A stretch of DNA of 24,000 nt from Allobaculum stercoricanis DSM 13633 (GTDB lineage Bacteria; Bacillota_I; Bacilli_A; Erysipelotrichales; Erysipelotrichaceae). The stretch lies in the NCBI RefSeq assembly GCF_000384195.1, contig NZ_KB913034.1, positions 515,873-539,872 of the forward strand, in the 5' to 3' direction. Positions 6,001-12,000 of this stretch are shown one piece after another (position 1 is the first letter of the stretch; the number at the start of each line of letters is the position of its first letter). A program made the position numbers.

Positions 6001-9000
6001 TATGGATTTTTCAACCAAGGAAAGATTGAGGTTCAATACGGGTTCGAAAATATGACAACCCCACAATCCTTAATCACTATTGGAATACTTGCACTAATCT
6101 TTTTATTCTATTACGTGTACGTACCTGCAAAAATTTGGAAGGGGCAAACATTGATGCTACACGTGATGCAGTTGAAAGTTGTAGACTTAAACGACCAAGA
6201 AGTAGGATTGAAGACATTGCTGTTCCGCTTTGTTGTTGGATGTCTATTATTGGAAGGAACATTCTATTTCTTCACTTCTGCATTTAAAACAATGTTGCTG
6301 ACAAAGTTCTTACCATTAGATACGGGAACGATGGATTTACTCTTAAGTGGTCCGATCGTAGTTATTTCGGTGATCTCCTTACTCATGTCACTACGTGATA
6401 AAACACATAGTCAAACTTTGCACGATAAGATTTCAAAAACTTACGTCAAAGATATTCATGAAGTTGGGAACGGAGCTTTATAAATTTCCTCATATTAGGA
6501 AGAAAGTTGAAAACGTTTACTTGTTTTATCTGATATACTCTAATCAACAAGGAGGAAATTACAATGCGTAGAGTTTACTTATTCTGTAATGCGGGAATGT
6601 CTACTTCTCTACTGGCAAGTAAAATGCAAAAAGTTGCCGATGAGCATAAACTGCCTTTTGAAGTAAAAGCATTTCCAGACTCTAAAATGGACACAATTAT
6701 CGCTGAGTTTAATCCTGACTGCATCTGCTTAGGTCCTCAGGTTAAACACCTGTACGGTAAAGTTGTCGAAAAATATGGTCATTTAGGAAAACCAATCTTT
6801 GTAATCGATAGCGCTGACTACGGTGCAATGAATGGTGAACGTGTCCTCAAAATGGCAATTAAGAAAATGAAAGAAAACGAAGGGAAATAAAAGATGTTTG
6901 ACAAGTTAGAAAAAGCGTTAACTCCTATTGCCGATACCCTTTCTAAAAATAAGGTGTTAACTGCTATCCGTGACGGTTTCTTAGTAACCGTTCCAATGAC
7001 AATCGTAGGTTCCATCTTCTTACTGATTGCAAACTTTCCAATTGATGGATGGTCTGAATTTATCGCTAGCTTCGCTGGTGAAGGATGGGAAGCATATTTA
7101 TCAGCTGTTACTTCCTCTACATTCGATGTAGTTGCATTAACAGGTGTTTTGGGTATCGGTTATGCTTACGCTCGTGAACAAGGCGTAGACAAAATTGCTG
7201 GTGCAGTTGTTGCATTAACATGCTTCTTGATCGTTACTCCTAAATCTCATCCAGATTATGTAAATGAAGCTGGTAAAGCATTCAGCGGTTTCAGCTTTGG
7301 TAACTTAGGTACTGCTGGAATGTTCTTGGGTATGATCACTGCGATCGTTTCTGTACTGATTTTCTCATGGGCGATGAAGAGAAAATTAGTCATTAAACTT
7401 CCAGATGGTGTACCACCTGCAGTTATGGATTCATTTGCTGCATTGATTCCTGCTGCGTTTGCAATGACAACTTTCGCAATTATTCATGGTATTTTCAAAA
7501 ATACTTCTTATGAATATGCACACAACTTCATTTATGAAGTACTTCAAGCACCACTTGTTGGTATCGGACGAAGCAACTTATTCGAAGTTACTTACCAATT
7601 CTTATCAACATTATTCTGGTTCTTCGGAATCAACGGACCAGCTGTTACAAATACAGTATTTGGCCCAATCCATAAAGTATTAACTCAGGAAAACCTTGAT
7701 GCTGCTAAAGCAGGTCTTGAAATGACTAATATCTTCACTGCCGGATTCTCTGATTTCTTCTGTAACTACGGTGGTGGAGGATCTACTTTAGGTCTTGTTA
7801 TCATGATGGCATTCTTAGGTAAATCCGCGCGTATTAAACAACTGGGAAGACTTTCTTTACCAGCTGCGATCTTCGGAATCAACGAACCAATTATCTTCGG
7901 TTTACCAATCGTATTAAACCCAATTATGGCTGTGCCATTTATCTTAGTTCCAGTATTGAATACAGTTACTGCAACTATCGCAACAAATATTGGAGTTCTT
8001 CCAATTACTTCAGGTGTTCAGTTACCATGGACAATGCCTATCATGTTCTCTGGTTGGTTAGTAACTGGTTCCTTAGTAGCATCTGTATTCCAGTTAGCTC
8101 AGTTAGTAATGGATATGTTAATCTACTACCCATTCTTAAAAATGCTGGATAAAAAATACTTGGAAGAAGAAAGCTTACATGCTGATGAAACGGATGACCT
8201 CGATGATCTGTCATTCGACGACTTATCATTTGATTAATCATGAAATTACTTTTGATTTTTGATTCTGGTCTTGCTGGAGCAGGTGGAAAAAGTAATCCAA
8301 ATTGCGAATTAACTGCTAAAAAAGGAATGATCGGAACAGGTGAGATGTTAGCACCTCACTTCAATAAAATCGGAGGAACTGTCATTGCTACACTTTATTG
8401 TGGAGTAGAATACTTCAAAGATCATCAAGACGAAGTAGTGAAAAAAATGACAGCGATGGCGAAAAAACTAAGCCCAGACTTTGTAGTTTGTGGTCCTGGT
8501 TTCAACTTTCCAGAATACTCAGAAATGTGCGCTATGTGTGCAACATCGATTCTTGAAAATACAGATATCAAAGCCTGTGCGATGATGTCACAAGAAAACT
8601 CGGCAACTATTGAGACTTATCGTACAAAAACTCCGATCGTAAAAATGCCTAAAAAAGGCGGTACTGGATTGAATAACTCAATCGAAAATCTTTGTGAATT
8701 GATTGATGCAAGTGTAAATCATCCAGAAAAACTTGAAGAAGTTAAAAACAAATATTGCTATTAAAAAAAGAAGCCAGCCGAAAGGTTGGCTTTTTTAGAA
8801 AGGCTACTCATGGAAAAAAACAGTTTTGAAAGACTTTCATCTTTATGTCAAGCAATGGGCGTAAGTGGTGAAGAAAATGATGTTAAAGAAATTCTAAAAA
8901 ATGGATTAGTTGGTGACGAATGGGTTAAAGATCGTTTGGGATCATTATTCTGCGTAAAAAAAAGTAACAATCCAAATGCAAAAACATTGATGATTGCAAC

Positions 9001-12000
9001 GAGCTTAGATGAACTCGGACTCATGGTTAGTGACTATGAAAGTGATGGAACACTGAAATTTGTAGCATTAGAAGGGATTTCTGCAGCAAGTCTTCTTCAC
9101 CAAAAAGTTTTAGTTTATACAAGAGATCATAAAGCATACACCGGTGTGGTTGCTTGCAATAAAGTACGATTCATGGAAGAACCATCCGCTGCGATCAAAA
9201 TGGATATGCTCGTATTAGATATGGGTATGACATTAGAAGAAGCGAAAAACGTATTTACAATTGGCGATCTCGTTTCTTTTGCAAGTGAATGTGAACAACT
9301 CGGTAGTGATGTCGTAATGGGTAAACAATTAAATACTCGTATGATGTTAGAAGCTATTATCGAAATTAGTGAAAGACTCCAAGGACATGAATTAGATTTC
9401 AATGTGGCAATGGGAGGAATTGCGCAATCCATCGTTGGATGGCGTGGAACAAAAACAGCAACTTATGTAGTTCAACCTGACAGTGCGCTTGTTTTATGTG
9501 GATTTGATGCGGCTAAATCATCACCAAAAATTACACGTGGTAATGGAATGTGCGTAGGTGTTTACGATAAACAAATGTTACCTGGAAAACGTCTGTTGAA
9601 TGATTTTACAGATCAGTTTGCTGTCCAAAAATCAATTAGCTTTTATGGCAATGATGGATCCTTCATCCACAAAACTTTAAAAGGAACACCTTCACTTTCT
9701 TTAGGTGTTGCAATGAATCACATGGGCGGACCTAGAGTCATGGCAAGTCTGTCTGATTTCGATGATTTAGTCGAAAAAACAGTGCAATACATTTTATCGT
9801 TGAACAGCGCTAAAATTGAAGAATTTGGATATGGTGTGAACTATGATTGATTTAAGCGTTTTGAAAAGTCTTTCGGATGCTAAAGGGATTTCTTCTTGTG
9901 AGGAAACCGTTTGTGGCATTATCGAAGAAAAAATGAAGGGCCTTGTCGATGATGTACGTCATGATGGATTAGGTTCTGTAATTGGAACGAAATGTTACGA
10001 CAATAAAGGTCCAAAAATTATGATTGCGACACATGCTGACGAAGTTGGTTTCTTTGTTCGTGACATTGATGAAAATGGATTCTTAAAATTAACACCAGTA
10101 GGTAGCTGGTGGTCGCACATGTTGTTAGGTCATAACTTTACAGTTGTGACTCAACAAGGAAAAGAAATTAAAGGCTTTATCGGTAGTATGGCTACTCATG
10201 GCTTACCACAAGAAATTCGTTCAAAAACTGTAGATATCAATGATGTGTATCTCGATTTAGGTGTAGCAAGTCGCCAGGAAGCTTTAGATCTAGGCATTCA
10301 GATTGGTGATATGGTTGCACCAGACACTGAATTGCGTAGAATGAATAACCCAAAATATATTGCCGGAAAAGCGTTAGACAACCGTGTTAGTTGCGCAGTT
10401 GGTCTTTATATTCTTGAACGTTTAAAAAATAAATCTCATGCGCCTTTGTCCTTTGCGGCAACTGCGCAAGAAGAACCAGGGCTAAGAGGGGCGCGTACAG
10501 CAACAGACGTGATGCATCCAGATTTGGCGTTTGCGATCGATACGACTCTTGCTGGAGATACGCCAATGAACAAAAACTGCAACCGTTTAGGTGGTGGGGT
10601 TGTTCTCTCAATGATTGACTCGAATACTATTGCATCTCGTCCACTCATTCGTTATGTTGAAAATGTATGTAAAAGAGTGGGAATCCCATTCCAATATGCA
10701 GTATTTGCAGATGGGGGAACGGATTCAGGTAACATTCATAAAAGTTTTGAAGGAATCGTCAATATGACATTATCGATTCCTATTCGTTACATGCATACAA
10801 ATCAATCAGTGATTCATGAAGATGATGTTGAAGCTTGCGTGGATTTGCTGACAGCAATTATCGAAGAAATGGATGAAGCAACTTTTGAAACACTGATTAG
10901 CTAGGAGAATGCGAAATGAAAGAGAAAATTTTTGCAAAAATCGATGAATTAAAAGATCAGATGATTCAGGATATCTGCGAGATGGTCCAAATCGACTCAC
11001 AACGCAGTGAACCTCAAGAAGGAATGCCATTTGGTCAAGGTGTAAACAATGCATTAACCAAAGCACTTGAAATTTCTAAACGTGAAGGATTGAGTGTAAA
11101 AAATGTAGATGGTTATATGGGTTACGCTCAATTTGGTGAAGGGGAAAACTACATTGGTGTCATGGGACATCTTGATGTCGTTGAAGTAGGAGATGGCTGG
11201 ATTTATCCTCCATTCTCAGCAACAATTGCAGATAATCGTATTTGGGGACGTGGCGCACTAGATAATAAAGGACCTTTATTCTCTGCGTTCTATGGTATGC
11301 TTGCTTTAAAAAAATTAGGCATCGAACCAAATATCCCGATTCGTGTCATCTTCGGTACAAACGAAGAAACAGGTATGGCAGATTGCCGTTACTATCTTGA
11401 ACACGAAAAAGCGCCATTAATGGGATTTACACCAGACAATAAATTCCCGGCAATTTATGGTGAGCGTGGACGTGCTGTGATTGCAGTAACAGGCAAAAAA
11501 GAAGTTGCTGTTCCATTCATCAACGAATACTTTATGAATGCAAAACCAAATGGTGATCGTTTAGGCATCAATTATAAAGATGAACACTTTGGTGAAATGA
11601 TTATCCGTGGCAAACAGCTGATTGAAGATGGTGATGATTTAGGTATCCGTTTCTCTTTAAGCTACCCAACTTGCGACATTGATGAAGTGATCGCAAAAAT
11701 CAAATCAAAAGCTGGAGATATGAAAGTCGAAGTGATTTCCAATAGTCCAGTTGTATTACATGAACGTGATTGTTGGTTAGTTCAAACTATTAGCGATGCT
11801 TATGCAGAAGCAATGGGTGGATATGTTCAACCAACAACAACAACAGGTGGAACATATGCACATGTTTGTCAAACAATCATTCCATATGGACCTAGTTTTC
11901 CAGGACAAAATGGAATTGCCCATCAACCAAATGAATGGATGGACATCGATGATTTAGTGACTTGTGCAAAAGTTTATGCTTGGACACTTTATCGTTTATG

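Follow-up and report, generated by a model that had tools for sequence, protein, structure and literature searches.

A predicted catalytically dead M42 paralog encoded in overlap with a canonical M42 peptidase in a glycosylasparaginase cassette of Allobaculum stercoricanis

Why should a peptidase-like protein that has apparently lost its active site be maintained directly in front of an intact relative? This question is raised by two adjacent plus-strand genes of Allobaculum stercoricanis DSM 13633, located in a stretch of 24,000 nucleotides on contig NZ_KB913034.1 (the window, i.e., the whole stretch analysed, to which all positions refer): (i) open reading frame A (ORF A; 8810..9850; 346 aa), encoding a putatively dead M42 paralog with 1 of 7 catalytic residues kept, and (ii) ORF B (9843..10904; 353 aa), encoding a canonical, YsdC-like M42 metallo-aminopeptidase with the full catalytic set HDDEEDH. 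The favoured explanation, to which a probability of about 50 % is assigned, is that protein A acts as non-catalytic subunit of a mixed M42 complex trimming imported glycopeptides.

Loss of the active site and retention of the fold

Both proteins are recognised by the Pfam profile PF05343 (Peptidase_M42), A with 131.8 bits (cut-off 23.2) across profile positions 1–290 of 292 and B with 303.8 bits across the whole profile. In BLASTP, the two align with each other over 346 columns with 25 % identity and an E-value of 5e-23, i.e., far above chance. The nearest solved structure of B is YsdC (1vhe, E = 1.1e-86), which is also among those closest to A. With the curated NCBIfam aminopeptidase models (YpdE, PepA, FrvX, archaeal lysyl), A reaches at best 134.8 bits versus a cut-off of 412; B stays under the equivalog cut-offs as well (273 versus 412 bits), YpdE being the best-scoring named model for both. 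In RefSeq, B is named 'M42 family metallopeptidase' and A 'hypothetical protein', the latter label constituting an annotation gap.

The signature motifs of B (THADE, ALDNR, AQEEPG, AIDTT and YMHT) contain the complete catalytic set H64, D66, D179, E210, E211, D233 and H318. At the matching positions, A carries ATSLDE, GKQLNTR, AQSIVG, LVLCGF and MNHMGG, corresponding (in B numbering) to the substitutions H64>S, D179>N, E210>S, E211>I, D233>C or gap, and H318>G, such that D66 is the sole catalytic residue of the seven retained. The same substitutions are obtained from BLASTP, from phmmer alignment to the solved M42 structures 9qr6 and 1vhe, and from alignment to hidden Markov models (HMM). None of these alignments can be shifted in register to bring back the ligands in A, and the His located two residues N-terminal to the lost H318 varies (H/N/E) across the A family. 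The first-pass annotation, made from the DNA sequence of the window, had listed HADE, ALDNR, AQEEPG, AIDTT and YMHT for B and SLDE, QLNTR, AQSIVG, VLCGF and NHMGG for A, and had concluded that in the latter the catalytic Glu is replaced along with each of the five metal ligands; motifs and losses are all found as described, also against the solved structures. Of the lengths given there (347 and 353 aa), that of B is correct, whereas that of A is one residue too long: starting from the ATG at 8810, ORF A comprises 346 aa, as do the gene calls in public databases. The end-to-end alignment and the 8-nt gene overlap reported along with them are likewise reproduced.

A survey of archaeal M42 proteins uses seven catalytic residues as family criterion (H62, D64, D173, E205, E206, D/E228 and H307 of PhTET1; PMC12516491). 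At these positions, A displays S, D, N, S, I, C and G, while B matches 7/7. Glycines 44, 77, 85, 86 and 211 of PhTET1 can be tentatively mapped by their offset from the catalytic residues; on this basis, A possesses conserved glycines at positions 44, 80 and 213, and the 85/86 position aligns to L87-E88-G89 of A (G87 of B corresponding to E88 of A). In terms of homology and fold, A is a member of the M42 family, yet as judged from its sequence it fails the enzyme-level definition, and thus should not be filed as an aminopeptidase.

The losses are shared by a large protein family. A search of 5.8 billion proteins (E ≤ 1e-10) retrieved at least 113 sequence clusters related to A, down to 33 % identity. 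Of the 110 full-length sequences inspected at the catalytic positions (A itself and 109 from the database), not one possesses the catalytic Glu or any of the five ligands, while D66 is invariant, E67 nearly so (one Gln), and Ser occupies the catalytic-Glu position throughout (110/110). Among 34 diverse members (down to 32 % identity), 35 columns are invariant, including the stretch N281-D-G-S-F-I-H-K-T289. The ratio of nonsynonymous to synonymous substitution rates (dN/dS), calculated for 12 closely related locus pairs, is 0.04–0.13 for A and 0.03–0.10 for B, and 36 species-level genomes, representing three families, carry A with an uninterrupted reading frame. Column entropy of A lies ~0.25 bit above that of B, the excess stemming mostly from residues 241–340, with residues 1–100 being as constrained as in B. 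These profiles suggest that constraint in A is not concentrated in the PDZ-like dimerisation domain as a whole.

The AlphaFold2 model of A has a predicted local distance difference test score (pLDDT) of 90.1 and a predicted template modelling score (pTM) of 0.90, with pLDDT < 50 restricted to residues 282–287 and the C-terminal 342–346. In Foldseek comparisons with the TET structures 5ds0, 9qr6, 1vhe, 1y0r and 2wyr, the model yields TM-scores (template modelling scores) of 0.8–0.91. Thus, A is confidently predicted to adopt the two-domain fold of a TET subunit, composed of a catalytic and a PDZ-like dimerisation domain. Framework residues of M42 proteins kept in A are S19, E22, D41, S45, D67, E68, G70, G210, R212, G213, P223, D253, D282, H287, K288 and G292. 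The tripeptide I-H-K (residues 286–288 of A) is common to A and its partner and rare in other M42 proteins (K in 25 %); of the invariant NDGSFIHKT, the live partner carries the D..IHK part, which most other M42 proteins do not have. An interpretation of IHK as a phosphate-binding mark of M42 proteins linked to the phosphotransferase system (PTS) was dropped, since FrvX, YpdE and SgcX of Escherichia coli are devoid of it.

On sequence grounds A is a pseudoenzyme: its fold is retained, the catalytic motifs are lost, and it evolves under purifying selection. The proposal of the first-pass annotation that A is 'dead' and nevertheless a functional protein agrees with the low dN/dS values and with losses common to at least 113 clusters. 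That A is inactive as a metallopeptidase and at the same time maintained by selection appears nearly certain.

Pairing with a live M42 and graded loss of catalytic residues

The stop of ORF A and the start of ORF B overlap by 8 nt, read directly from the sequence (9843..9850, plus strand; ATGATTGA). GAAAGG is located 7 nt 5' of the ATG of ORF A; a longer version of the gene, starting from a TTG at 8786, is unlikely, since this codon falls within a hairpin with T-run (8770–8797). Upstream of ORF B, a GG-rich stretch resembling a Shine-Dalgarno sequence lies inside the last codons of ORF A. Junction sequences of related loci reveal that these final codons encode a conserved FGxG(D/E) motif, the GG-rich DNA of which could double as ribosome-binding site for B.

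One scan of species-representative genomes yielded 36 loci from Erysipelotrichaceae (including Dielma, Solobacterium and Bulleidia), Lachnospiraceae and the Peptoniphilaceae genera Anaerococcus and Helcococcus, the contig continuing past A in 35 of them. Wherever both genes are present (35/35), the gene immediately 3' of A encodes an M42 protein, at a stop-start distance of −14 to +1 nt, an arrangement suited to the translational coupling proposed in the first-pass annotation. The partner possesses the full HDDEEDH set in all 34 full-length cases and additionally in 6/6 more distant loci. The function of A very probably depends on B.

A profile search over 1.84 billion representative sequences, the best 150 of which were classified at the seven catalytic positions, places the dead proteins into a wider context. 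The 15 top matches (529–311 bits) represent the A family proper, followed by a mixture beneath, and about 20 further degenerate M42 proteins are found among these best 150. The six that were looked up (P0130, P0121, P0122, P0151, P0123 and P0144) are without exception encoded in the same type of cassette, containing lactose/cellobiose-type (lac/cel) PTS genes and/or genes for M20, Asparaginase_2 and CutC proteins, and are directly followed by a canonical M42 gene (6/6). The site patterns of such first-of-pair proteins form a series: HDEKEDH, in which the ligands are all kept or conservatively replaced and the catalytic Glu is changed to Lys, HDNHEDE, NDRREDH, NDSNKEN, FDRNQDD and then the fully stripped A family. 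In a rough neighbour-joining tree, the first-of-pair proteins all fall into one clade and the second-of-pair proteins all into another. P0125, with a full site and positioned inside the first-of-pair clade, was considered as ancestral active form and discarded, as its gene is a single M42 gene in unrelated surroundings and its placement is probably a tree artefact.

The residues conserved across the first-of-pair clade belong almost entirely to the general M42 framework and are conserved in the partner, too. The Ser of the close A family is not preserved in the wider clade, and no clade-specific polar or catalytic motif replacing the lost site is detected there. As read from these patterns, the dead state arose by graded decay inside one lineage. 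Graded loss together with the absence of a new motif indicates a retained scaffold with lost chemistry and argues against a new enzyme in the old pocket. This also renders less likely the suggestion in the first-pass annotation that A may have acquired a different function, as far as an enzymatic one is meant.

Natural M42-M42 fusions of ~680–790 aa (P0120, P0140, P0143, P0148, P0164, P0178, P0223 and P0202; loci L040 and L041), likewise retrieved by this search, are a further form of pairing, gene fusion being a classic sign of protein interaction. Most of them contain two complete or near-complete catalytic sets. In P0202, recovered from two independent contigs, the N-terminal half is live and the C-terminal half dead, and the 3' end of a further M42 gene upstream overlaps its gene by 8 nt. 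Outside any PTS locus, the degenerate M42 protein P0194 is encoded adjacent to a live one. Live/dead tandem M42 genes are thus a recurring arrangement. A tandem located next to murD-like and sporulation genes, outside any PTS locus (L047, 6976–9023; L048), has the reverse order, with the first protein canonical and the second degenerate (TDDSKDH); live/dead M42 tandems are consequently not limited to the glycosylasparaginase cassette.

The surrounding cassette and its known relatives

All genes of the cassette described in the following are located on the plus strand. Upstream of ORF A, these are genes for a PRD-type regulator (2750..4654; HTH_11, two PRD domains and EIIA_2 according to Pfam) and a CutC-family protein (4752..5507; PF03932, 166 bits), both with counterparts in most related loci, followed by an RDD-family membrane protein (5860..6483; PF06271) encoded directly 5' of the PTS genes, a position shared by the related loci that cover this region. 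The PTS genes code for EIIB of the lac/cel type (6564..6890; PF02302) and for EIIC of the same family (6894..8237; PF02378; TIGR00410 with 388.9 bits, cut-off 236). They are followed by the gene for a GrdB-related protein of 174 aa without selenocysteine (8240..8764; NCBIfam NF041545 GrdB_like_no_Se with 231.5 bits, cut-off 175), named 'GrdB-related putative oxidoreductase' by NCBI. In the window as in most related loci, this gene stands directly after that of EIIC; exceptions are L045, where an EIIB gene is inserted between the two, and L037, which has no GrdB-like gene.

The boundary between the GrdB-like gene and ORF A is occupied by a terminator-like hairpin with T-run (8770..8797, plus strand; scan match 8776–8791). 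A hairpin with T-run exists at this position in most related loci (L001–L034), with stems differing in sequence; the GC-rich element may represent a leaky terminator or an mRNA-end element parting transport from peptidase genes. The ega operon of Enterococcus faecalis appears to end at this boundary as well.

Downstream of ORF B, a PepV/Sapep-like M20 dipeptidase is encoded (10916..12046; PF01546; TIGR01887 with 321 bits, cut-off 208), and behind it a second terminator-like hairpin was read directly from the plus strand (AGGTGCT...AGCACCT plus T5, loop > 8 nt; 12103..12136). About 390 bp of non-coding DNA separate this hairpin from the gene for a glycosylasparaginase, N4-(beta-N-acetylglucosaminyl)-L-asparaginase (12529..13488), assigned from PF01112 and its best solved relative, the glycosylasparaginase of Elizabethkingia (196 bits versus 125 bits for isoaspartyl peptidases); the protein is 99 % identical to the RefSeq entry of this name from A. 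stercoricanis. Then follow genes for an EIIA of the lac/cel type (13536..13931; PF02255, 102.8 bits) and a NagB-like protein of the glucosamine-6-phosphate deaminase/isomerase family (14142..14858; PF01182, 77.3 bits). Due to the hairpin and the ~390 bp gap, the asparaginase-EIIA unit looks like a separate transcript in A. stercoricanis; in most other loci the asparaginase gene directly follows the live M42 gene. No known RNA family was found in an Rfam scan of the window. A DUF5648 protein gene and an IS3-type transposase pair (HTH_Tnp_1 ORF and overlapping rve integrase ORF; 15168–17751) follow shortly after the NagB-like gene, where the cassette may end.

The conserved gene order across loci reads RDD, EIIB, EIIC, GrdB-like, A, B and then M20 and Asparaginase_2 in either order, usually accompanied by CutC. 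Specific additions of the window to this order are the PRD-type regulator, the lac/cel EIIA and the NagB-like protein. The regulator varies, being of the PRD/EIIA type in the window, a GntR protein in L044 and sigma-54 activators in some relatives. Some related loci additionally contain DUF7916 (L037, 11518–12414).

For the utilisation of N-acetylglucosamine-L-asparagine (GlcNAc-L-Asn) by means of the ega locus, the primary study is reportedly that of Combret et al. 2023. This locus of E. faecalis comprises genes for the glycosylasparaginase EgaG, lac/cel EIIB and EIIC, a GrdB-type putative oxidoreductase, a dipeptidase and a GntR regulator (PMC11549559), its PTS importing GlcNAc-L-Asn (PMC11549559; PMC11976118). 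By annotation, the window shares with it the glycosylasparaginase, lac/cel EIIB and EIIC, the GrdB-related protein and an M20 dipeptidase. Differences are that no M42 genes are listed for ega (PMC11549559), and that the window has a PRD-type instead of a GntR regulator and, in addition, CutC, RDD, an EIIA of its own and NagB. Locus L044 combines the ega-like layout, including the GntR regulator, with the dead/live M42 pair. The cassette is thus related to ega, with the M42 pair as an addition that, as far as the literature searched shows, has not been described.

In the alf-2 cluster of Lactobacillus casei, a glycosylasparaginase is linked to the M20 peptidase PepV, which was proposed to trim N-glycopeptides to GlcNAc-Asn (PMC6960285). 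In place of the PTS of the cassette, this cluster encodes a permease of the major facilitator superfamily (MFS) and a fucosidase, and it has no M42 genes (PMC6960285). Glycosylasparaginase acts on Asn only if both its alpha-amino and its alpha-carboxyl group are free (PMC6960285), so that an aminopeptidase and a dipeptidase next to it make biochemical sense. The context of a GlcNAc-Asn PTS/glycosylasparaginase cassette, which the first-pass annotation had missed, provides a concrete basis for the involvement of glycans that it had tentatively suggested.

Proposed role of the dead paralog and its implications

According to the favoured explanation, A would be retained by selection as obligate partner of the canonical M42 encoded immediately 3' of it. 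Both proteins, co-made from the overlapping cistrons, would form a mixed oligomer of M42 subunits. Cleavage would be carried out by the B subunits only, with the A subunits shaping assembly, access or the holding of substrate. In the corresponding pathway, the lac/cel PTS would import and phosphorylate a glyco-amino acid or short glycopeptide, residues N-terminal to the glycosylated Asn would be removed by the M42 pair and those C-terminal to it by the M20 dipeptidase, glycosylasparaginase would split the sugar from aspartate, and the sugar phosphate would be passed on to NagB. Association of A and B in one particle is considered slightly better than an even bet, and the assignment of GlcNAc-Asn peptides as substrates is put at even odds. 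A function of A as scaffold, gate or glycan binder, as envisaged in the first-pass annotation, would be plausible.

Mitochondrial processing peptidase (alpha/beta) and the bacterial M16B heterodimers each combine a paralog without metal motif with an active one, the inactive paralog handling the substrate. These pairs belong to a different clan and fold and form dimers instead of self-compartmentalising dodecamers; A would resemble such dead partner paralogs by analogy. No description of a dead or pseudo-M42 protein was found in literature searches. Among the M42 proteins of Bacillus subtilis, YtoP and YsdC both keep their sites as far as is known, and their genes are not known to form an overlapping pair in a PTS locus. 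A bacterial M42-M42 hetero-association of these two is indicated by the title of the integrative crosslinking model 9a5r in the Protein Data Bank (PDB). A heterododecamer (6:6 or 8:4) is formed by PhTET2 and PhTET3 of Pyrococcus horikoshii (PMC4220976), in support of the first-pass statement that hetero-oligomeric TET complexes are known in Pyrococcus. As with A and B, two M42 paralogs of one organism are concerned, and the predicted fold of A has TM-scores of 0.81–0.83 to both. In contrast to A and B, however, each of the two Pyrococcus proteins is an active metalloenzyme with a specificity of its own, and re-assembly took place in cobalt buffer (PMC4220976), whereas here one partner would be devoid of a metal site, the genes overlap, and the locus is a PTS sugar locus. 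Since M42-M42 fusions exist and M42 proteins are known to co-assemble (PhTET2/3, 9a5r), the role of A as a partner subunit is regarded as the best reading.

Several observations weigh against it. Adjacency and overlap of the genes demonstrate co-expression, not binding. The ega locus as described operates without M42 genes (PMC11549559), which would make the M42 pair an accessory, and a pepV mutant of L. casei still grew on 6'FN-Asn (PMC6960285). The building blocks of PhTET2/3 are homodimers of two active enzymes rather than live/dead pairs (PMC4220976). The assembly of M42 proteins into dodecamers is reportedly driven by metal binding (PMC7948507), and metal-site mutants of TmPep1050 are dimeric (PDB 5ne6–5ne9); a metal-free subunit may hence not fit into the classical dodecamer and may change or limit assembly. 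Furthermore, the invariant NDGSFIHKT contains the sole internal low-confidence stretch in the model of A (282–287).

As an alternative, A could be a stand-alone non-catalytic protein outside the B particle, i.e., a homo-oligomeric binder, buffer or sensor for a glyco-amino acid or peptide, co-expressed with B only because both serve one pathway. Loss of the site with fold and selection kept is compatible with such a function, for which the tendency of metal-free M42 subunits to stop at dimers would be suited (PMC7948507; 5ne6–5ne9), and S45, T216, H287 and K288, common to A and its partner and less common in other M42 proteins, could be ligand contacts. However, a stop/start overlap strictly kept in 35/35 loci and a live-dead M42 fusion in another lineage would rather be expected of proteins that share a complex, which leaves the stand-alone function plausible but unlikely.

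It is rather improbable that A represents a neo-functionalised enzyme with non-metal chemistry, e.g., involving the Ser at the catalytic-Glu position together with His287/Lys288 in a deacetylase or amidase step. This Ser is invariant in the close family (110/110), D67, E68, D282, H287 and K288 are invariant as well, and according to Pfam scans no NagA-like deacetylase is encoded in the window, which would leave room for such an activity. However, across the first-of-pair clade at large, N, H, K, E or R takes the place of the Ser, the five other residues are conserved also in the live partner and hence belong to the framework instead of a new site, and a clade-specific polar motif is missing.

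Continued metal binding and activity of A, with ligands shifted or substituted and the 'dead' call being an alignment artefact, is very improbable. The low identity to active M42 proteins (22–29 %) and the gap in the aligned LVL---CGF region call for caution, but three independent alignment methods concur, nearby candidate residues are not conserved (H304 varies, C231 occurs in 10/110 members), neither His ligand has a conserved stand-in, and A scores far under the curated NCBIfam M42 cut-offs (e.g., 134.8 versus 412). A pseudogene in the making, i.e., a decaying duplicate, to which the somewhat lower conservation of A (entropy ~0.25 bit higher, mostly at residues 241–340) might point, is already refuted by dN/dS of 0.04–0.13, intact frames in 36 species-level genomes of three families, 35 invariant columns down to 32 % identity and a confidently predicted fold.

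Within the partner-subunit explanation, one may speculate further, if with low expectation, that the dead subunit turns a generic TET aminopeptidase into a glycopeptide-processing machine. Either the emptied pocket of A would dock the bulky phospho-GlcNAc-Asn next to the live site, or metal-free A would block closure of the dodecamer, such that open A-B assemblies accept glycopeptides too large for TET pores. If true, a defined role would for the first time be assigned to a natural M42 subunit devoid of metal, and the presence of M42 genes in PTS sugar operons would be explained. In E. coli, the M42 genes for FrvX, YpdE and SgcX likewise reside within PTS operons of unknown substrate; unlike A and B, these proteins keep the full HDDEEDH, occur singly without a dead paralog and have no IHK. 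The cassette offers a testable answer to this puzzle, namely that PTS-imported glyco-amino acids or glycopeptides need trimming at both ends prior to the action of glycosylasparaginase.

For the M42 family, the TET peptidases of which are model self-compartmentalising machines with reportedly metal-dependent assembly, a widespread metal-free subunit paired with a live one allows a direct test of the assembly model. If the favoured explanation is true, M42 would join the peptidase families employing dead paralogs; under the seven-residue criterion of the archaeal survey (PMC12516491), A-like sequences would go uncounted. The finding should thus be relevant to specialists in TET peptidases as well as to the study of glycan foraging in the gut. 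Carriers of the locus are gut- or host-associated Firmicutes (Allobaculum, Dielma, Lachnospiraceae, Anaerococcus and Helcococcus), and the proposed pathway would therefore bear on the harvesting of host N-glycoproteins by these bacteria.

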